IMG/VR virus record: IMGVR_UViG_3300001522_000241
Reading direction: 5' to 3' (one strand)
Origin: a virus
DNA: 6,699 nt
The number at the start of each line of letters is the position of its first letter. Positions within the stretch are counted from its first letter, which is position 1. The position numbers and the translations under genes are program-made. Below are positions 1 to 6,699 of this stretch, piece by piece. Under the pieces are notes generated by a model, which was not told the origin of the DNA, did no database searches, and worked only from the letters and a program-made list of their open reading frames with translations.

Positions 1-31
1 CTGAGCCTGGGTCTCATCCCATACGGGTAAC
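1..31. repeat. Left copy of a 31-bp terminal direct repeat, identical to 6669-6699
   Basis: ctgagcctgggtctcatcccatacgggtaac occurs at 1-31 and again at 6669-6699 with no mismatch. This fits end overlap of a circular contig; att duplication is a less likely alternative. Confidence 0.95.
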
Positions 32-82
32 GGTCCCTCGGACCTCCGGGGCAAAGCCCCTCCGCGCTCCGCTTGGCGAAAA

Positions 83-370
83 TCACGCAGTCTTAGCCGC
101 TGACAGGGACTTTTCAGCGACAAGACGAATCTCGAAGCGATTAATCTCGAGGCTGCCGAAACGGTTAACGCTGAACGAACCGGGGTGCAGGGTGTACTCG
201 CCTACTGGGTAAGCATCGCCGTGGCTGTTCAGTGGAATTTTAAATTCCACGGGGAAAGCGCCACCCATGTGTGCGTACGCGGTTTGTTCGTGAATCGTTT
301 TCTGGCCAGTCTGAGTAGTGATCATCCGGGAGATGGGCTGCTCATGGCCTTTGATAATTTCAATTTTCAT
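83..370 (-). CDS. gV: ssDNA-binding protein, homologous to Ff (M13/fd) gene V protein
   Basis: 95 aa, directly downstream of gII. It aligns by eye with M13 gVp along most of its length: MKIEI vs MIKVEIK, FPVEFKIPLNSHGDAYPVGEYTLHPGSFSVNRFGSLEINR vs YPVLVKITLDEGQPAYAPGLYTVHLSSFKVGQFGSLMIDR, and IRLVAEK vs LRLVPAK. Confidence 0.9.
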   Translation of the reverse strand: MKIEIIKGHEQPISRMITTQTGQKTIHEQTAYAHMGGAFPVEFKIPLNSHGDAYPVGEYTLHPGSFSVNRFGSLEINRFEIRLVAEKSLSAAKTA

Positions 371-387
371 AACGTCTCTACCTATTT

Positions 388-1410
388 TTAAGCGGCGTGC
401 AGTTGCGCCCAGGAAGTCACCGCTTGCGCCTCAATAATGCGCTTGCGGATCGGAACGACCTGACCTTTGGCCAGATCGGCATCACCCAGGCCAGCAGCCC
501 GGAGAATCTTCAAATTGCGGTACCAGGTCGGGCGACTCTGTAGTTCACGAGCGGCTTCCCATCCGCGCGATTGAATCAGCGCCCACAGCCCGAGGGCGGC
601 TTTAGCCTGCCCTTCCGTCTTAGCCACCTGAAAAACACGTTCCTTGAGTTCGTCTTCGCCAGTCATATCCGCATCTCCAATCATTCGCTCGAAGTAGCTG
701 CTCCACTCAGCCTTCAATTCATCGGGTTTTAACGTTAGCCAGTCATGGCGCTCGAACCATGCGCGGCCGAGCTTCAATTCCAGGCGCAAGAGGCGGTTAG
801 CATCCGCGATCTCTTGCGCCGTGTAGTTGCACCCGGTGTAGTCGGGCTTTTTCATCATGTAAGTCAGGTGAGGCCCCTTCGCGTAAGCCTTGCCAGCACG
901 GTGCTTTGATCGGTGAGACCAGTAGACGGTATCGCCAGCCTGCTGGCTGACCCGGTACCGGCCACCCTCGCACTCACGCAAAATCGAAAGCGCCTGCCGC
1001 ACCTCTGCCAGACTCGAAAGCGCCAGGTTCTCGGTCACGTCGATGCGAGACAAAATCCAGGCTTCCGGGCCGGGCAGATCGGTGCCCAGGTAGGCAGCCA
1101 CCCACCTGATCATGTGATCGGCGCAGCCGCGCAGATCGAGCGCGGCAGACGCCCCGGCACCGAACACGGCGTCACCTCTGCCGATGACCCTGGCGGGTGA
1201 CCCCTGAATCCAGAGTTCGGCCCCGCCGGCTTTCAACGCGATCTGGTGAGAATCGCTCCGGATGCTGTCCCAAGCAGCGGACGTCCAGCGTTCATCACCT
1301 GTCTGGGGGCAGTAGCGGGTGATCCGGTCGCCAATGGTCAGGCACACGGCCCTGGCGTGATCGCTGAGCTTCTCGTACGGCACCCGGATGGTGACCCAGT
1401 CGATCATCAT
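388..1410 (-). CDS. gII: Rolling-circle replication initiation protein, Ff gene II / phage CRI family
   Basis: 340 aa. N-terminus MMIDWVTIRVPY matches gIIp MIDMLVLRLPF. Other blocks also resemble M13 gIIp: IQGSPARVIGRGDAVFG vs IKASPAKVLQGHNVFG, SRIDVTENL vs SRIDATF, TVYWSHRSKHRAGKAYAK vs TVTWNETSRHRTLVAYLK, and LLRLELKL vs LVRFEARI. A GGGGGTGA Shine-Dalgarno-like run lies upstream. The start overlaps the upstream stop as ATGA. Confidence 0.9.
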   Translation of the reverse strand: MMIDWVTIRVPYEKLSDHARAVCLTIGDRITRYCPQTGDERWTSAAWDSIRSDSHQIALKAGGAELWIQGSPARVIGRGDAVFGAGASAALDLRGCADHMIRWVAAYLGTDLPGPEAWILSRIDVTENLALSSLAEVRQALSILRECEGGRYRVSQQAGDTVYWSHRSKHRAGKAYAKGPHLTYMMKKPDYTGCNYTAQEIADANRLLRLELKLGRAWFERHDWLTLKPDELKAEWSSYFERMIGDADMTGEDELKERVFQVAKTEGQAKAALGLWALIQSRGWEAARELQSRPTWYRNLKILRAAGLGDADLAKGQVVPIRKRIIEAQAVTSWAQLHAA

Positions 1411-1847
1411 TCGCGGTCACCCCCTGGACAGTCGGAAGTACTGTCCAAACGGTCGGCGAAAGTCTCACTCATGAGACAAAGGGGCGGTGTTACAAGGACC
1501 GCCCCTTGCCGATCGTCCCGATCAGCAGAAGAAAAAGCCCCGGTGGGAGACTCGGGGGAAGACACCGGGGTGGGGAACAAATCGAGTTGCTGCTCGACCT
1601 GGTGCGAGCTGCTGGGCCGTGAAAGGCGTTGTTCAGGGCGGGGATTCCCGTTCGGTGCCGCAGCGGGGCGCCGGGCTGCCCGGAATCGCGCCAACGTGCG
1701 CTGAGAGGCCGTCTGGGGGCCGTGCGGGTCCCAGTGGGACCGGGGGCGAGGTAACGGCCGTGAAACGTCTGTGCGCTGTTCAGCCGCGTTCTGCGGCCTG
1801 TCATCGCCTACGGCGATAGGGTGCGGGATCGGATCGCGGCGCTTCAT
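1407..1847 (-). CDS. Hypothetical Pro/Arg/Ser-rich protein, predicted largely disordered, function unknown
   Basis: 146-aa ORF. AGGAG lies 8 nt upstream of the ATG. There are ATGA start/stop overlaps with both the upstream ORF (1844-1847) and gII (1407-1410). Third codon positions are mostly G/C when read by eye. No recognisable domain, and long ORFs arise easily in GC-rich DNA. Confidence 0.45.
   Translation of the reverse strand: MKRRDPIPHPIAVGDDRPQNAAEQRTDVSRPLPRPRSHWDPHGPQTASQRTLARFRAARRPAAAPNGNPRPEQRLSRPSSSHQVEQQLDLFPTPVSSPESPTGAFSSADRDDRQGAVLVTPPLCLMSETFADRLDSTSDCPGGDRE
1462..1507 (-). other. Tandem stem-loops embedded in the 146-aa ORF, 55-100 nt upstream of the gII start
   Basis: Perfect 10-bp inverted repeat aaggggcggt (1479-1488) / accgcccctt (1498-1507) with a 9-nt loop. 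An adjacent 6-bp hairpin is gtctca (1462-1467) / tgagac (1472-1477) with a 4-nt loop. Read on the minus strand, each is followed by TTT. Confidence 0.6.
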
Positions 1848-2242
1848 GAGCGGCGCTCCTGCTGCCGGCGAGGCCGGGCAGGCTCACGCCCTACCCTACG
1901 GCCTGCGGCCCGAATGCCATCCGACGCCAGCGCGTGTAGAAAATCGGGGTCATGGCTGAAACGCTGAGGCCGGCGAGGCGCGGCCATGTGGCCGAGGCCG
2001 CAGGAGGCCAATACCAACTCGACGCTTTCGGAGGGAGAACACAACATCTTGTGCGCCGGCGGAACGCCTTGTGCACAAGATATGGGGTTTGCGGCGGCGA
2101 GCTTGGCGCGGCGGCGCTCGATCCAGGCGACGACGTGGCCGTCGTGGAGAGCGTAGCCCTGGTGTTCCAGGCCAAGCCAGTAAACGCCGGACTCAGCTGG
2201 CGGCGCGAAGGGGGACATGTAGGGCGAGAGCTTGACGATCAT
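1844..2242 (-). CDS. Hypothetical protein, 132 aa from the MIVKL start, function unknown
   Basis: I prefer the internal ATG at 2242 to the track start at 2281. AGGGAG lies about 8 nt upstream and this ATG overlaps the upstream stop as ATGA (2239-2242). The first ~55 codons show strong C/G third-position bias. The bias weakens around the repeat element at 2041-2091. Confidence 0.5.
   Translation of the reverse strand: MIVKLSPYMSPFAPPAESGVYWLGLEHQGYALHDGHVVAWIERRRAKLAAANPISCAQGVPPAHKMLCSPSESVELVLASCGLGHMAAPRRPQRFSHDPDFLHALASDGIRAAGRRVGREPARPRRQQERRS
2041..2091. repeat. Copy A of a 51-nt repeated element, inside the 132-aa ORF
   Basis: Ungapped alignment of 2041-2091 with 3313-3363 gives 39/51 identities. 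Conserved blocks are GTGCGCC, AACGCC, CAAGATATGGG and TTTG. It contains a 9-bp inverted repeat atcttgtgc (2046-2054) / gcacaagat (2073-2081) and the palindrome ttgtgcacaa (2069-2078). Confidence 0.7.
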
Positions 2243-2427
2243 GGACGCAGCTCCCTTCGGAGATCCCACAAAGCAATCCAACCGATGAGCACACGGGTCT
2301 GATAATCAAAGAACAACGGACATGGCGAGGCAGTGGAATCAGTGATAGCGCGGTCTTCGCACTGGACGCACAGATCCCCGAGTTCGGCGGGCTCATCGCA
2401 AAGGCGGCAGCGTTCGGTCATCCCCAT
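2239..2427 (-). CDS. Small zinc-ribbon-like protein (CxxC-x9-CxxC), first gene of the leftward operon
   Basis: 62-aa ORF. The start may instead be the third codon, ATG at 2421, which has AAGGGG 6 nt upstream. Motif is CRLC-x9-CVQC near the N-terminus. The stop overlaps the next start as ATGA. Confidence 0.5.
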   Translation of the reverse strand: MGMTERCRLCDEPAELGDLCVQCEDRAITDSTASPCPLFFDYQTRVLIGWIALWDLRRELRP

Positions 2428-2465
2428 CCCCTTGTTCTAGTTAAACCCCTGTAGGTATGCGCGCA

Positions 2466-2495
2466 GATATAGCACTAAAGGGGTATAGGCATCAA
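2466..2495 (-). promoter_or_regulatory. Candidate sigma70-type leftward promoter (TTGATG-18-TATATC)
   Basis: Minus-strand TTGATG (plus 2490-2495) and TATATC (plus 2466-2471) are separated by 18 nt. AGGGGT motifs lie in the spacer, next to the -35 and downstream. Read by eye only. Confidence 0.3.
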
Positions 2496-2508
2496 GGGGT
2501 TTAGATAA

Positions 2509-2538
2509 TTGTAGGGGTTGAACGTTAAAGGCTAGTAT
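2509..2538 (+). promoter_or_regulatory. Candidate sigma70-type rightward promoter (TTGTAG-18-TAGTAT)
   Basis: TTGTAG at 2509-2514 and TAGTAT at 2533-2538, followed by AGGAGG at 2546-2551 and the ATG at 2560. The AGGGGT copy at 2513-2518 overlaps the -35. Confidence 0.3.
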
Positions 2539-2559
2539 TGCCCGCAGGAGGAACACCGA

Positions 2560-2955
2560 ATGAAAAAGACCCTGGATTACATCGACCAGCTGGCGGCGTT
2601 GAAAGGCTGGGAAACCGACTACCAGATAGCGAAAGGCCTAGGAATCAAGACGCCGACGATGACGAGATACCGTCGCCATGGCGGAACGCTGGACAATGAC
2701 ACGGCGTGGAAAGTGGCTGAAGGCTTGGGGATTGACGCAATGGAGATCATCGCGGCGGCTGAGATCGAGCGCGCGGAACGCGCAGATAACACGGAGAAGG
2801 CGGCCGTGTGGAAGCGCCGATTTCAAGCGGTAAGCCATTCTGCTGCAACGATTCTCGGAATTATTGCACTGCCCTATGGCATCTGGCTGGCGGATCGACT
2901 CTGTATATTATGTTCAATAGAGGATCGGCCCGCGTTAAAGCGTCAAGTAGCATGA
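2560..2955 (+). CDS. HTH (Cro/CI/XRE-like) transcriptional regulator, candidate phage repressor, with a hydrophobic C-terminal segment
   Basis: 131 aa with a strong AGGAGG RBS 8 nt upstream. It has an N-terminal helix-turn-helix-like segment DYQIAKGLGIKTPTMTRYRRHG and lies divergent to the replication operon. The C-terminal stretch AATILGIIALPYGIWLA is hydrophobic. Confidence 0.75.
   Translation: MKKTLDYIDQLAALKGWETDYQIAKGLGIKTPTMTRYRRHGGTLDNDTAWKVAEGLGIDAMEIIAAAEIERAERADNTEKAAVWKRRFQAVSHSAATILGIIALPYGIWLADRLCILCSIEDRPALKRQVA
2891..2918 (+). other. dif-like Xer recombination site (candidate attP): degenerate XerC arm, TGTATA central region, 10/11 XerD arm
   Basis: 2902-2918 TGTATA-TTATGTTCAAT matches the canonical dif central region plus XerD arm TGTATA-TTATGTTAAAT at 16/17. 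The 11 nt in the XerC-arm position (2891-2901, cggatcgactc) match GGTGCGCATAA at 2/11. The site sits in a local AT-rich patch. Confidence 0.6.
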
Positions 2956-2978
2956 TCTTCCTGTAACGGGAGATCGAT

Positions 2979-3305
2979 ATGGACTTCAGAACAGCGGCCT
3001 TCGGGCTGCACCCCCGCCAAATCGCCGACCTGATCGGCGTCCACATCAGCACCGCACGGAAATACCTCAGATCTAACCAGGCACCGGCCTGGGCGTTCCA
3101 ACTCCTAACCATCCATCGACACGGCCGACTGCCGACAGACTGCCCGACCTGGTCACACTGGCGAATATCCGGAAGCTTTCTAATCGACCCGGCCGGCGTC
3201 GAATACAGCGCCGGCGACGTAATGAGCCTTTGGATCGTTGAGCAGCTGAAAGTGGAGCTGGAACGAAAGCACCGCGCCCCGGTTCAGTACCTCCTCGACG
3301 TTTAA
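2979..3305 (+). CDS. Small HTH-containing phage regulatory protein, function unknown
   Basis: 108 aa with GGGAG 7 nt upstream of the ATG. It has an N-terminal HTH-like segment PRQIADLIGVHISTARKYL, and a Trp-rich centre WSHWRISGSFLIDPAGVEY. It follows the repressor-like gene on the same strand. Confidence 0.65.
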   Translation: MDFRTAAFGLHPRQIADLIGVHISTARKYLRSNQAPAWAFQLLTIHRHGRLPTDCPTWSHWRISGSFLIDPAGVEYSAGDVMSLWIVEQLKVELERKHRAPVQYLLDV

Positions 3306-3312
3306 ACCAAAC

Positions 3313-3363
3313 ACAAGATGTGGTGCGCCAGGTTAACGCCAGGCGCGCAAGATATGGGATTTG
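3313..3363. repeat. Copy B of the 51-nt repeated element, in the convergent intergenic region
   Basis: 39/51 identical to 2041-2091. It carries two direct CAAGAT-type motifs, acacaagat (3311-3319) and gcgcaagat (3345-3353). It also has direct cgccagg repeats flanking a gttaac palindrome. Confidence 0.7.
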
Positions 3364-3387
3364 GACAGCCGCGGGGAACGGCTAACA

Positions 3388-3428
3388 GCGGGCGGGGGTG
3401 CGTCGTTCCTCCGCCTCCCCTCGCCCGC
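3388..3428. terminator. GC-rich imperfect hairpin between convergent genes; possible bidirectional terminator or ssDNA structural signal
   Basis: gcgggcggggg (3388-3398) pairs with cccctcgcccgc (3417-3428), giving 11 bp with one bulged T and an 18-nt loop. There is no clear T-tract on either side, so terminator function is uncertain. Confidence 0.3.
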
Positions 3429-3430
3429 CG

Positions 3431-4438
3431 CTAGCCGTCATCGCCGGATGACCGAGAAGGGGATTCATCGGGGGGACGCGATGGCGCCGGATCGGCGCTG
3501 GCGAGGTGGTTGAAAACGCCGTCGGCCAGGGCGCGCTTGCACATCGACAGCGACATATCCCGAATGCGGGTGCCCTGCTGGGTGTAGCAGCGGCAGTCGG
3601 ACTGATTCGGCCGAAAGGCCATGCATCCGGAAACGACCGGCACCGCCTGGACGTTCATAGCGGCCTCGCGGTAGATCGGGGCGGTGTAGGGAACGCCGGA
3701 GACGGCAGGAGTCAGCAGCTCGGCCCAGGAACCGGGTGACTGTGTGGGCATTGTGCCTGGCGCCATGGGTACGCCCTGCTCGACCGTCTGTTTTGCAGCG
3801 TCGGGATCTACGCCGCCAATGCTGAAACTGCTAAAGAACCACCACCACGCACCCGCAGCCGTGAGGACCAGGGCGCCCAGGATGTACAGCATCTTGGGCG
3901 GGTTAAACTTATGGGTATGGACCTCGGCGGAGTGATACAGGCCGAACGCCGCTTTAGGGAGCGGCTTGCGCTTCTGCGAGCAGCGGGCCAGATCGGCGCG
4001 GTTGCTCGGTGAGATGGCGCCGGTACCGCAGTGATACTCGGTGATCATCGGCGCTTGGAACGGGCGCACGTAGTGAAAGTGTTCGTTTGCGATCTTGCGG
4101 GCGTGGCTGTCCAGCAAGCCGGGCTCCTGCGTAATAAAAAACACGTCATAGCCGTAATGACGGTGCGTTTCGAGCGCGGTTAAACCATCGGGTACCGGGC
4201 GACTGGAAGGACGTACCGGGAACAGCTGCTGCGCTTCGTCGATAATAACGACTGCGCCCTCAGGAACGTTCTGACGCCAGTCCTTCGCTTGATCATCGGT
4301 CAACTCGAACCAGCCGAGGTCTGGGCTCAAATCCCGGATACCCCTGTAAAACACAGGGCGATTCTTTACGTCCTTAAAGCGGAGCAACGTGCTGGACGTC
4401 TTGCCGGCGCCCGGTGTTCCGGTGACCAGGGCGAACAT
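3431..4438 (-). CDS. gI: Zot / gene I-like assembly ATPase
   Basis: 335 aa. Walker A is GTPGAGKTS at residues 7-15 and Walker B-like VVIIDEAQ follows. A central transmembrane segment MLYILGALVLTAAGAWWWFF precedes a C-terminal domain. The start overlaps the gVI stop (TAATG). It is in the canonical position after gVI. Confidence 0.9.
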   Translation of the reverse strand: MFALVTGTPGAGKTSSTLLRFKDVKNRPVFYRGIRDLSPDLGWFELTDDQAKDWRQNVPEGAVVIIDEAQQLFPVRPSSRPVPDGLTALETHRHYGYDVFFITQEPGLLDSHARKIANEHFHYVRPFQAPMITEYHCGTGAISPSNRADLARCSQKRKPLPKAAFGLYHSAEVHTHKFNPPKMLYILGALVLTAAGAWWWFFSSFSIGGVDPDAAKQTVEQGVPMAPGTMPTQSPGSWAELLTPAVSGVPYTAPIYREAAMNVQAVPVVSGCMAFRPNQSDCRCYTQQGTRIRDMSLSMCKRALADGVFNHLASADPAPSRPPDESPSRSSGDDG

Positions 4439-4749
4439 TATTCAGCGCCCTGCCCGGCCATGAACGACAGGCGCTTGAAACCGCTGGCAACCATGATCCA
4501 GGCCAGCAGACCAAGGTGGGCGGATATCACCAGACTGATGAACACATCGACACCGGCGATACTGGCCAGGGCTAGAACATCGGAGGCGGCGCCGAAGTGC
4601 TGGCTGACCAGGTTAACCAGCTGGTCGCCAAGTTCGACGACGCCGGTATAAGCGACGACGCCCATACCAAGGGAGACCAGCACACGGCCAACCATGCCGC
4701 TGATCGCGCCGAACAGCCAAACACCGAGGGTTTGCAGGAAAGCGGGCAT
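4438..4749 (-). CDS. gVI: gVI-like minor coat / membrane protein
   Basis: 103 aa, very hydrophobic with several predicted membrane helices. It lies between the gIII analogue and gI, with 1-nt overlaps at both ends (TGATG, TAATG). Assigned mainly from position and composition. Confidence 0.7.
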   Translation of the reverse strand: MPAFLQTLGVWLFGAISGMVGRVLVSLGMGVVAYTGVVELGDQLVNLVSQHFGAASDVLALASIAGVDVFISLVISAHLGLLAWIMVASGFKRLSFMAGQGAE

Positions 4750-6152
4750 CAGTCAGATCCTCCGGAGAATTTGCGCAGGATGATCAGCGCGGACATGAGG
4801 TAGCCGAGGGCGATAACGATCGGCCGGACCATCGCGGCCCAGTCGCAGATCGGCTCCCAGGACAGGGTAAAAGAGCCTCCGAAGGCTCCTGGCATCGAGA
4901 AAGTGCGATCAGCCGGGCACGCGAGATTGCCGAAGCTGATGGTGTCCTCTGAAAGACCGGCGACGACAGTGCCGGCATCGAGAGTGGCGGAGGGGATCGC
5001 GTTATCAGGCTGGCCGTCACCGTCGCCGTCCTCGCTGCTGGTGATCGAGGGGCCTTCGAGATATTCCTCATCGCCGACGAAATCCCGATGCTCGGTTGTG
5101 GCGTCACAACGGACGTGGAAAAGCTCGATCGCGAGAGCGCACTGGATGGCGTCCATATTGTCGGAGCACTCCGGCTCCACGCGCTCGCCGGGTTCGCAGG
5201 TACCGCCATCGTGATAGCCGTCGCCGGGTTCGTTGCCGTCACCCTCGCCGTCGTCTATGCCACCGGGCTCACCGTCGGGAATGCCGTTGCCGTCGCCGTC
5301 TTGCTCACCGTCCGGAGTGCCGTCGCCATCGGCGTCGGGATCATCAGGATTGGGGTCATCGGCGTTAGGAATACCGTCGCCATCGCTGTCGGCGCTGCCG
5401 TCGCTATCAGACGGTTCCTCATAATTGGGGTCATCCTGACCGCAGTACCAGTCACCGGTAGAACCACCGGCCTCATTACAACTTTCATCTGTTTCTGGTG
5501 CACGACAATAGGTCTGACCATTAGGAGCAGTAACGCTGTTTGGACAGCCGCCGCCACCACCGGGACAGTACCGACCATCGAACCCCTGATAACAACCATC
5601 CTCATCCGTATATTCGTCCCACGGTTCCGAAGGCTCAGCACCGTCAGACTCATCGCAGTAAACACCGGTGCTGGTGGCGTCGTAGAAATACCGCCGCACG
5701 CCGTTAACCTGAATCCAAGGCACTGAACCGGAGGAGCTCGTGGTCATTACGCAATTGGAATAACAGGCATCCGAACCAAGCGGAGAGGAGGAAACGACCT
5801 GCTGAGTCTCTCCGGCGGGAATCGGGCATTCAGTGATGGGACCGAAACACAAATAACCGCCAGGATTTGCGGGATCAGGTCCTAGACGAGGAAACGACGA
5901 TGACGAGCAATAAACCGCCCTATACTGCGTATTGCCGTTAGAATCAGTAAATGGATCGCAAACACCGCTATGATACGATGATAAAAACGCCCCACAATCC
6001 TCCTGATAATAAAATTGTTTAGTTAATGGAGCGACGCCCTCAGCGGCCGAAACAAACGACGCTAACGAACAGAGAGCAAGCCCCACAACGAGACCAGCAC
6101 AACGAAGAAGTAAAGCCACGGACCAAAATCCCCTTCCATAATCACCTCCCAT
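4749..6152 (-). CDS. gIII: gIII-like adsorption / minor coat protein with a Cys-rich N-domain, acidic repeat linker and C-terminal anchor
   Basis: I prefer the start at the ATG at 6152 (MGGDYGRGFWSVALLL), which has GGGAG 6 nt upstream. The track start at 6266 would run through the terminator and gVIII. It has a signal-peptide-like N-terminus ending VSA/AEG, many Cys in the first ~280 mature residues, and a D/G/P-rich tract. The C-terminal hydrophobic anchor is IVIALGYLMSALIIL followed by RK. Confidence 0.75.
   Translation of the reverse strand: MGGDYGRGFWSVALLLRCAGLVVGLALCSLASFVSAAEGVAPLTKQFYYQEDCGAFLSSYHSGVCDPFTDSNGNTQYRAVYCSSSSFPRLGPDPANPGGYLCFGPITECPIPAGETQQVVSSSPLGSDACYSNCVMTTSSSGSVPWIQVNGVRRYFYDATSTGVYCDESDGAEPSEPWDEYTDEDGCYQGFDGRYCPGGGGGCPNSVTAPNGQTYCRAPETDESCNEAGGSTGDWYCGQDDPNYEEPSDSDGSADSDGDGIPNADDPNPDDPDADGDGTPDGEQDGDGNGIPDGEPGGIDDGEGDGNEPGDGYHDGGTCEPGERVEPECSDNMDAIQCALAIELFHVRCDATTEHRDFVGDEEYLEGPSITSSEDGDGDGQPDNAIPSATLDAGTVVAGLSEDTISFGNLACPADRTFSMPGAFGGSFTLSWEPICDWAAMVRPIVIALGYLMSALIILRKFSGGSD
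5205..5432 (-). repeat. Asp/Gly/Pro-rich tract encoding tandem DxDxDGxxDxxD-type (thrombospondin type 3-like) repeats
   Basis: The translated tract includes DSDGDGIPNADD, DADGDGTPDGEQD and DGDGNGIPDGE (core at 5268-5390). A fourth copy, DGDGDGQPDNA, is encoded at 4995-5030. The biased composition also creates long spurious ORFs on both strands here. Confidence 0.6.
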
Positions 6153-6185
6153 TTTTATCTCCCAAAGACCGGTAGTCGCTCGGAG

Positions 6186-6210
6186 ATAAAAATGGCCCCC
6201 GAAGGGGCCA
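6186..6210 (-). terminator. Rho-independent terminator downstream of the major coat gene
   Basis: On the minus strand the stem is TGGCCCC-TTCG-GGGGCCA (7 bp with a UUCG-type tetraloop, plus 6193-6210). ATTTTTAT follows immediately. It starts 7 nt after the gVIII stop and lies upstream of the gIII RBS, the classic inovirus arrangement. Confidence 0.85.
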
Positions 6211-6216
6211 CCCTGA

Positions 6217-6348
6217 TTAACGTCCCAGCATGCTCTTGACTTGCCGGAACGCCCAGATGCCTGCAATCACAGTCACCACAGCCAGACCAATCGGAGACAG
6301 GTCGGTGAGTGCACCGGTGATCGCAGTATCAACGCCGGTAAAATCCAT
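6217..6348 (-). CDS. gVIII: Major coat protein, 43 aa with no signal peptide (gVIII analogue, Pf3-like organisation)
   Basis: Absent from the ORF track because it is short; I translated it by hand as MDFTGVDTAITGALTDLSPIGLAVVTVIAGIWAFRQVKSMLGR. It has an acidic N-terminus, a hydrophobic core and a basic C-terminus (R, K, R). GGAG lies 7 nt upstream and a strong terminator follows directly. Confidence 0.8.
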   Translation of the reverse strand: MDFTGVDTAITGALTDLSPIGLAVVTVIAGIWAFRQVKSMLGR

Positions 6349-6367
6349 GACGTTTCTCCACGCGAGG

Positions 6368-6571
6368 TTAAAATAATCTGCGAGCCTGCCGAACGCAGAA
6401 GACCGCAGCCCAAAGGATGCCGATAGAGGCTAGAAGCATATTGGCATCGTCGTACGTCATCGGTGGCAAACCAAAAGGACCACCACCGGGGACGTTCTGT
6501 AGCGTGCCAGCGCAGATAACTTCTCCGCCGGGGCCCTGTTGCCATTGACCATCACACGCTATTAATTCCAT
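6368..6571 (-). CDS. Small membrane protein, candidate minor coat protein (gVII/gIX position)
   Basis: 67 aa with AGGA 6 nt upstream of the ATG. It ends 19 nt before the gVIII start. The N-terminal part has two Cys and Gly/Pro-rich stretches. The C-terminus has a hydrophobic helix MLLASIGILWAAVFCV followed by a basic RQARRLF tail. Confidence 0.5.
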   Translation of the reverse strand: MELIACDGQWQQGPGGEVICAGTLQNVPGGGPFGLPPMTYDDANMLLASIGILWAAVFCVRQARRLF

Positions 6572-6668
6572 TGCTTTTCCTGTTCTAAAAACGGTTGTGT
6601 CCGTCCTGCGGAACGGGCCCTACTCTGTAACTGAGCCGTGCGGGAAACCCACAGGGCGCATAACATCG
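6572..6668 (-). other. Structured intergenic region, continuing through 1-82 on the circle; candidate origin or packaging-signal region
   Basis: About 180 nt with no convincing ORF between gV and the structural genes. It holds several short stem-loops: ggtcc-ctc-ggacc (32-44), ggggc-aaa-gcccc (48-60), ccgtcc/ggaacgg (about 6601-6616) and tgcggg-aaa-cccaca (about 6639-6653). Function is inferred from position only. Confidence 0.3.
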
Positions 6669-6699
6669 CTGAGCCTGGGTCTCATCCCATACGGGTAAC
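6669..6699. repeat. Right copy of the 31-bp terminal direct repeat, identical to 1-31
   Basis: Exact 31/31 identity with 1-31. Confidence 0.95.

Follow-up and report, generated by a model that had tools for sequence, protein, structure and literature searches.

The window analysed here is the entire 6,699-nucleotide stretch of the virus record IMGVR_UViG_3300001522_000241, which represents a circular genome of 6,668 bp whose bases 1-31 recur at 6669-6699 as an assembly overlap. Positions 2891-2918 of this window (CGGATCGACTC-TGTATA-TTATGTTCAAT, 28 bases) resemble dif, the chromosomal site of the recombinases XerC and XerD, and sequence comparisons indicate that they almost certainly form a functional dif-targeting attachment site (attP) of a filamentous phage without an integrase. 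The site lies inside the 3' end of a gene for a repressor-like helix-turn-helix (HTH) protein, where it encodes ...DRLCILC, and a gene for a second HTH protein, with a DUF3653 domain, follows. The features of this locus are as follows.

2560-2955, plus strand: gene for a repressor-like HTH protein of 131 aa (PHROG 4441/638, HTH regulator)
2891-2901, plus strand: degenerate arm CGGATCGACTC at the position of the XerC arm, encoding ADRL of the repressor C-terminus
2902-2907, plus strand: central (crossover) region TGTATA, 6/6 against host dif
2908-2918, plus strand: predicted XerD-binding arm TTATGTTCAAT, 10/11 against the host arm TTATGTTAAAT
2919-2925, plus strand: AGAGGAT, 7 nt beyond the XerD arm, resembling host DNA that flanks dif
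2979-3305, plus strand: gene for an HTH + DUF3653 protein of 108 aa, a candidate Xer activation factor by its DUF3653 family membership

A preliminary description of this DNA had drawn attention to the segment TGTATATTATGTTCAAT (2902-2918), which it matched to the central region plus XerD arm of Escherichia coli dif at 16 of 17 positions. The match was reproduced, and it proved to be the sole one in the window on either strand with up to three mismatches. The expected number of matches with at most one mismatch came out again at 4e-5 for uniform composition, as first estimated, and at 3e-6 for the composition of the window (59.6% GC); none of 200 dinucleotide shuffles of the window gave any match to the central region plus XerD arm. 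The left 11 nt agreed with the E. coli XerC arm at 2/11 positions, exactly as described before, and with the host XerC arms at 1/11 (ACTACGTGTAA) and 3/11 (AGTACGTATAA), with 0/5 matches at the innermost positions. Neither the gamma-proteobacterial XerC-arm consensus (RNTRCGYRTAA) nor the host XerC arm plus central region occurs anywhere in the window. The differences between phage and host XerD arms are confined to the outer positions 7-8, leaving the six innermost bases intact in the prophages as well, and a C at position 8 serves as a marker of phage origin. The attP is also conserved in two free phages, L050 and L051, whose DUF3653 proteins are merely 44-65% identical to that of the window.

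Similarity to the host extends past the arm. The DNA beyond dif in host genomes reads agaggatatg (L026 and L036) or agaagataac (L042), resembling the phage AGAGGAT, and the overlap of the two BLAST alignments at the prophage junctions spans 24 nt (2902-2925) rather than 17. This resemblance suggests that a host chromosome may have been the source of the phage XerD arm. Many of the gamma-proteobacterial dif flanks scanned have a GATA(T) motif in common, a few nucleotides past the XerD arm. Two other elements were considered and dropped. An inverted repeat around the site (GGC.GATC..CTCT / AGAG.GATC.GCC) is energetically insignificant and is absent in L049/L055, L051 and L058. The XerC-arm-like AGGGCGCATAA at 6650-6660, considered as a partner half-site, lies 3.7 kb away with no adjoining central region or XerD arm, in an intergenic segment that is conserved and kept in relatives.

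Eight related prophages with dif-hybrid junctions were found in Alcanivorax/Alloalcanivorax-type chromosomes (L005, L012, L014, L047, L049, L054, L055 and L058), in some of which the lysogeny genes are 94-99% identical to those of the window. Among named genomes, Alcanivorax sp. MM125-6 has the closest Rep (76% identity), which marks prophage L005, and the search with the 108-aa open reading frame (ORF) yielded the other seven loci. The preliminary description had predicted that integration would leave one junction that stays dif-like and another without a XerC arm, and both kinds were found in these prophages. One junction joins the host XerC arm and TGTATA to the phage XerD arm with its phage C, giving a near-perfect dif; the other joins the phage pseudo-arm and TGTATA to the A-bearing host XerD arm. 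In L014, for example, host DNA ending ...attcatg-ACTACGTGTAA-TGTATA is joined to phage TTATGTTCAAT-agaggatcggccc (1813-1840), and phage DNA ending ...ctggctga-CGGATCGACTC-TGTATA is joined to host TTATGTTAAAT-agaagataac (7925-7952). This reciprocal pattern is repeated in L012, L047, L054, L055, L005 and L058, with L049 being a contig trimmed at the cores. The borders of the MM125-6 prophage are CGGATCAACTC-TGTATA-TTATGTTAAAT and AGTACGTATAA-TGTATA-TTATGTCAAAT-agaggatcgg, and the pseudo-arm is retained by the phage at the host-XerD-arm junction in L012, L014, L047, L049, L054 and L055. The central region is identical in the attP, in both prophage junctions and in the empty Alloalcanivorax dif, with the exception of the left junction of L054 (TGTATG). 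Since the phage C always stands beside the host XerC arm, the crossover is placed between the XerC-arm boundary and XerD-arm position 7. Moreover, window DNA can be aligned up to the core from both sides, over 2742-2925 at one junction and 2902-3306 at the other, so that the site is collinear with a double-stranded attP. From 2902 on, the window shares about 94-95% identity with L047 (to 5391) and L054 (to 5833), and the DUF3653 proteins of both are 99% identical to that of the window.

In L054, a type II cyclic-oligonucleotide-based anti-phage signalling system (CBASS) operon with CD-NTase, E1/E2, JAB and SAVED effector genes occupies 3155-7938 and separates the host flank from the prophage. 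The junction beside this phage reads TATACGTGTAA-TGTATG-TTATGTTCAAT, with a XerC arm and central region that differ from those of the host, and the CBASS stretch could represent a further dif-associated element, in which case the two would form an array. Among the relatives found through Rep, L006 and L008 have no dif-like junctions and carry their own tyrosine integrases (L006 6719-7558; L008 15418-16260), although they belong to the same Rep clade (62-64% identity); L009 has no dif-like site. The integration module is thus exchanged independently of the replication module, and Rep clade is not predictive of it.

The host dif is ACTACGTGTAA/AGTACGTATAA-TGTATA-TTATGTTAAAT. In a scan of one genome per species, the reconstructed 28-mer, which is the gamma-proteobacterial dif consensus, occurred as a single copy in each of 32 genomes, among them six named Alloalcanivorax species and several metagenome-assembled genomes (MAGs) of Alcanivorax. 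Empty sites could be matched to occupied ones: the two flanks of the MM125-6 prophage recur with 100% and 99.9% identity in A. profundimaris ST75FaO-1 (L046), where they are contiguous at an empty dif with a 24-nt overlap, and A. venustensis ISO4 (L042) represents the empty site for L014 and L047, with the right flank alone matching for L054. GC skew around the 32 loci changed on average from positive to negative, as expected at a replication terminus, and was weakly supportive overall. By these comparisons, integration at dif through the window site is established, and the insertion is precise, reciprocal and dif-specific. The preliminary description had called for the host to be identified and for integrated copies flanked by dif/attP hybrids; the eight prophages and the two matching empty dif sites in named genomes supply both, and the sequences point to Alloalcanivorax/Alcanivorax as the likely host.

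Integration also alters the repressor gene. In the free form the protein ends ...LCILCSIEDRPALKRQVA (window 2919-2955), with 13 extra residues, SIEDRPALKRQVA, beyond the end of the prophage form, which terminates as ...LCILC* at a TAA supplied by the host XerD arm (L014 7948-7950). Homologues of the repressor match Pfam HTH_3. Compared with L048 over 2439-2742 and with L047 over 1830-2415, nucleotide similarity is lost over the repressor N-terminus and the region upstream, although identity is 91-96% elsewhere and the repressor 3' end carrying the attP is conserved. In sequence, this divergence looks like the swapping of an immunity region.

The gene for the 108-aa protein, which went unmentioned in the preliminary description, is the most informative clue to the mechanism. 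Its start lies 61 nt past the XerD arm, on that arm's side of the attP, and it is the terminal gene of the prophages L012 and L014 at one end, as is the repressor gene at the other. A full HMMER search with this ORF gave 136 relatives. DUF3653 was matched by 44 of the 52 aligned family members (best 1.1e-11), and HTH_23 and HTH_17 each by 15 of the 52; alignment of the family profile with gp a of phage PM2, which is annotated as DUF3653, gave a probability of 95.7% in hhalign. An AlphaFold2 model (mean pLDDT 89) contains helices at 12-48, three short strands at 62-77 and a long helix at 78-99, with the helices at 12-48 coinciding with the stretch that HTH families match in the relatives. Searches of PDB profiles and BFVD folds with the protein returned generic HTH or uncharacterised proteins and no XafT structure. 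The broad DUF3653 alignments were too divergent for a locus search. The XafT protein of phage TLCphi combines an HTH with DUF3653, binds XerD and activates it without FtsK, and aids the synapsis of imperfect sites (PMC6744903, PMC9226527). From its predicted domains and modelled fold, the 108-aa protein has the architecture of XafT, an N-terminal HTH with DUF3653 behind it, and is a candidate Xer activation factor.

A mirror image of this arrangement was found in L010/L011, from a marine MAG, whose Rep is 60% identical to that of the window phage. Here the element is integrated at a dif of the form ACTGCG(Y)ATAA-TATATA-TTATGTTAAAT, and its attP, ACTGCGCATAA-TATATA-AACCGCCAAAA, has the TLC geometry, in which the XerC arm is good and a XerD arm is missing (sites at L010 9107-9134 and 15579-15606 and at L011 6518-6545). 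As in the window, a repressor-like gene carries the site in its 3' end; the next ORF, of 141 aa, is a homologue of the window's DUF3653 family (hhalign 97%). In the window and L010/L011 alike, the repressor side of the site holds the degenerate arm and the intact arm points toward the DUF3653 gene, but the identity of the intact arm, XerC or XerD, differs. By sequence, then, the same module exists with either arm sacrificed. The finding fits a report that DUF3653 genes differ between subclasses in where they lie and how they are oriented with respect to dif (PMC6744903).

Taken together, the site is probably best explained as a XerD-armed attP that is the mirror image of TLC-type integration, a reading drawn from sequence and from analogy with TLCphi. 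In such a reaction, the double-stranded replicative form would recombine with the chromosomal dif, and the host XerC and XerD would perform the chemistry, as suggested by the dif-specific insertion and the crossover inside the core. XerD would bind the intact phage arm, and XerC, because the attP lacks a XerC arm, would be brought in via protein-protein contacts with XerD. XerD binds dif more strongly than XerC does, XerD-dif contacts are thought to dominate synapse assembly, and in TLCphi assays the six innermost XerD-arm bases were the most constrained (PMC9226527). The HTH + DUF3653 protein may act like XafT, activating XerD for a first exchange independently of FtsK and stabilising the synapse with the imperfect site; the fully matched central region would then permit the second exchange. 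By analogy with TLCphi, we see about an even chance that the DUF3653 protein drives such a XerD-first reaction.

The preliminary description had also suggested that loss of the XerC arm at one junction could make integration hard to reverse. For the FtsK-driven route this stands by analogy. FtsK-driven recombination in TLCphi assays tolerates near-canonical sites only (PMC9226527), and a block of FtsK-driven excision by a crippled arm was shown for TLCphi attP variants (PMC9226527) and argued for the gonococcal island (PMC5357621), so that the crippled arm of the window phage may likewise shield its prophage. For the factor-driven route the suggestion does not hold, since the two prophage junctions form a pair of substrates identical to that of attP and dif, and the reverse reaction should be equally possible if the phage factor is made. 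In a lysogen, the working dif would keep its native XerC-side context, and FtsK arriving from the XerD side would meet the XerC-less junction and the prophage first.

Several points weigh against this interpretation. The window phage itself was seen solely without host flanks, the integrated copies all being relatives whose identity reaches no more than about 95% in parts of the genome and is 79-80% for the Rep region. The dependence on XerC and XerD, the order of strand exchange and any role of ORF 2979-3305 are all deduced. Local GC skew near dif is weak and has the wrong sign in the profundimaris-type flanks, of which few kb are available, and this test of terminus position was not relied on. 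Furthermore, the Pfam DUF3653 match of the 108-aa ORF itself falls short of the threshold (E 1.2e-3; 19.3 bits, with 22.4 required), and PSB15 of Xanthomonas phage phiLf-UK, a DUF3653 protein also of 108 aa, binds the packaging-signal hairpin, while integration can proceed without it (bioRxiv 10.1101/2024.03.19.585677).

The last two points favour an account in which the site is an attP but the DUF3653 protein binds a packaging signal like PSB15, with integration left to basal or FtsK-activated XerCD; the hairpin-forming repeats right after the ORF, at 3310-3363, suit it as well. We consider this account unlikely. PSB15 has an N-terminal DUF3653 and no HTH, whereas the window protein has the XafT arrangement, and the DUF3653 gene always abuts the attP at a prophage terminus, like the rstR-attP-xafT module. 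The preference of FtsK-driven recombination for near-canonical sites, noted above for TLCphi, also speaks against it.

A different possibility, to which we assign a small chance, is that recombination proceeds without any sequence-specific binding of XerC. In one version, a XerD-only exchange would be activated by the phage HTH + DUF3653 protein and completed by replication; in a second version, the pseudo-arm would be read by the HTH of the phage factor, or by the repressor, in place of the XerC-DNA contact. If true, the XerD-only route would be the first counterpart of the XerC-only route of CTXphi. As a corollary, FtsK coming from the XerD side in a lysogen would encounter the crippled junction and the prophage ahead of the working dif, and dimer resolution would then need FtsK to strip XerD from that junction. 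Stated fully as a one-recombinase pathway, XerD alone would exchange strands as the mirror of CTXphi, the Holliday junction would be resolved by replication or host resolvases, and XerC would be at most structural. The missing XerC arm, including its five inner palindromic bases, is in keeping with such a pathway, CTXphi demonstrates that a single exchange plus replication is sufficient (PMC5357621), and junction sequences cannot separate one exchange from two. We nevertheless find the pathway rather doubtful. The central region matches that of the host at 6/6 positions in every Alcanivorax-type relative, and TATATA equals TATATA in L010; such identity is required for two exchanges and unnecessary for one. 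In addition, both exchanges are completed in TLCphi, the nearest system to have been studied, even though one of its arms is crippled.

Still less can be said for an attP of the CTX type, in which the packaged single strand would fold so that two inverted half-sites build the missing XerC arm: the phage is a single-stranded DNA (ssDNA) inovirus and the region does fold weakly on itself, but the window holds no second dif-like half-site and no XerC-arm-like partner, the local fold is no better than in shuffles (z about -1.2), and the junctions are plain reciprocal hybrids that run collinear with the duplex site, which together make this model very improbable. The probability that the site arose by chance, or is a passive scar of host DNA, and plays no part in integration is next to negligible, for although the 7 nt of host similarity past the XerD arm could reflect a past capture, the shuffles gave no match, L050 and L051 keep the site in spite of their diverged DUF3653 proteins, and it coincides exactly with the prophage ends at all eight loci.

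The rest of the genome, recognised from its terminal repeat and from Pfam and PHROG matches, is arranged as follows.

1-6668, strand not applicable: complete inovirus genome
83-370, minus strand: gene for an ssDNA-binding protein
388-1410, minus strand: gene for a pII-type Rep, the replication initiator
3431-4438, minus strand: gene for a Zot/pI morphogenesis ATPase
4438-4749, minus strand: gene for a pVI-like protein
4749-6266, minus strand: pIII-like ORF
6217-6348, minus strand: gene for a B-type major coat protein

The pII-type Rep, ssDNA-binding protein, coat B and Zot/pI ATPase on a small circle identify, from sequence, an Inoviridae-like filamentous phage, in which the repressor gene and the 108-aa ORF are oriented opposite to the structural and replication genes. 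The statement of the preliminary description that no integrase is present was borne out: none of the ten main ORFs scanned matched an integrase, transposase or resolvase family in Pfam or PHROG. A megablast of the whole genome against GenBank phages returned no nucleotide-level relative, and the best Zot matches, to Ralstonia, Pseudomonas and metagenomic inoviruses, reached at most 37% identity (34-37% for Ralstonia inoviruses); with protein matches this low and megablast empty, the phage has no characterised close relative. Searches of phages by tblastn with the repressor and the DUF3653 ORF gave nothing informative. Proteins identical to those of the phage occurred solely on contigs of 2-7.5 kb without host flanks, from hydrothermal-plume and vent metagenomes.

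Some further elements of the genome were observed. A strong hairpin with 21-nt arms on the viral strand lies at 6149-6195, between the coat gene and the pIII-like gene; its DNA fold is -15.6 kcal/mol (z = -5.1), equalled by 0/200 shuffles, and it could be a terminator, packaging or origin element. A 54-nt, partly palindromic element ending CAAGATATGGGRTTTG is present in two copies (2038-2091 and 3310-3363; 78% identical) that flank the lysogeny-gene region. The second copy follows directly on the stop of the DUF3653 ORF and is kept in L005 (14895-14950), where it forms a longer hairpin. From its sequence, a role as convergent terminator, operator or packaging signal is conceivable. The intergenic segment 6650-6699 / 1-85 is 98.8-100% identical to L005 and L049, with the adjacent genes at about 72-77%, and is a candidate origin or packaging signal by conservation, not a dif partner. 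In the pIII-like gene, several imperfect direct repeats at 5013-5440 encode a stretch rich in Asp, Gly and Pro (GDG.P.. units), probably a flexible linker; the pIII-like protein of L005 is far shorter, at 311 aa.

These results assign a host and an integration site to an uncultured inovirus group of hydrothermal-plume and other marine metagenomes, the hosts being oil-degrading bacteria. Work on XerD-armed sites has so far been limited to cataloguing; the experimentally dissected classes of integrative mobile elements exploiting Xer (IMEX) all keep the XerC side. The present group offers a compact case with free forms, eight integrated forms and isogenic empty sites, and together with L010/L011 it makes a natural pair for asking how a DUF3653 factor copes with the loss of either arm and why one is sacrificed.

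With respect to known systems, the phage has the attributes of an IMEX: no recombinase of its own was found among the ten ORFs, its attP is dif-like, and hybrid-flanked prophages and empty dif sites exist. The classical IMEX classes, CTXphi, VGJphi, TLCphi and the gonococcal island, retain the XerC side, and the latter two combine a good XerC arm with a poor XerD arm (PMC5357621). TLCphi resembles the window phage in its use of host Xer, its one crippled arm and a central region that fully matches dif. It encodes the HTH + DUF3653 protein XafT, of which the 108-aa ORF of the window is a candidate counterpart at the level of the family. The arms are reversed: in TLCphi the XerC arm is kept and the XerD arm is poor, whereas the window has 10/11 at the XerD arm and 1-3/11 at the XerC position, which places the functional dif of a lysogen on the opposite side of the prophage. 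CTXphi and VGJphi are likewise Xer-exploiting inoviruses that integrate at dif. However, CTXphi recombines through folded ssDNA, with strands exchanged by XerC only, in contrast to the single site of the window with no partner and no significant fold, and VGJphi has both arms and a mismatch on the XerD side of the central region that forces a XerC-first order, in contrast to the missing XerC arm and the dif-identical central region of the window (PMC5357621).

The Xanthomonas and Stenotrophomonas phages Cf1c, phiLf and XacF1 are also integrase-less, integrate at dif and encode on the reverse strand a DUF3653 protein as well as a repressor, but unlike in the window phage, their HTH and DUF3653 are separate ORFs and PSB15 serves packaging. 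The attP core of these phages consists of the XerC side and the central region. Ralstonia phage phiRSS0 shares with the window a dif-like attP embedded in a reverse-oriented repressor ORF (ORF13), and it is not known to have a link to DUF3653.

The closest likeness is to the lysogeny module of PM2. As presented in a study of the borders of Vibrio prophages (PMC12715192, Commun Biol 2025), this module consists of an RstR/P16 repressor, a dif-like attP and XafT/P15 and is shared by PM2-like corticoviruses, other double jelly-roll (DJR) phages and Vibrio 'CTX-I' inoviruses. The dif-type DJR phages are described there as using full-length, 'left-armed' or 'right-armed' sites of 17 bp, with the 'left-armed' form stated explicitly for DJR phages only; as dif is written ATTTAACATAA(N)6TAATRCG... 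in that account, the left arm is the XerD arm. The PM2 site named there is ATTTAACATAATATAAA, between p15 and p16. On the coding strand of PM2, we found that CGTGCTTACGA-TTTATA-TTATGTTAAAT follows the HTH gene (gp c) and precedes the DUF3653 gene (gp a). PM2 thus resembles the window in the order and orientation of repressor, attP and DUF3653 gene on one strand, in the homology of the proteins, in a 17-bp XerD arm plus central region with no convincing XerC arm, and in the placement of the two genes at the prophage termini. The window differs from the PM2 module in its inovirus backbone, in its Alcanivorax/Alloalcanivorax host rather than Vibrio or Pseudoalteromonas, and in the position of its attP inside the repressor coding sequence. 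The inverse geometry, which the preliminary description set apart from the Xer-exploiting elements it listed, is hence not new, since a 17-bp XerD-armed attP was described for PM2-like phages in the 2025 study, and PM2 shows the same. By its sequence, the window displays both features of the XerD-armed ('left-armed') P16-attP-P15 module, the 17-bp attP and the flanking placement of repressor and DUF3653 genes; to this kind, already described in 2025, it adds a new host group and an inovirus backbone.

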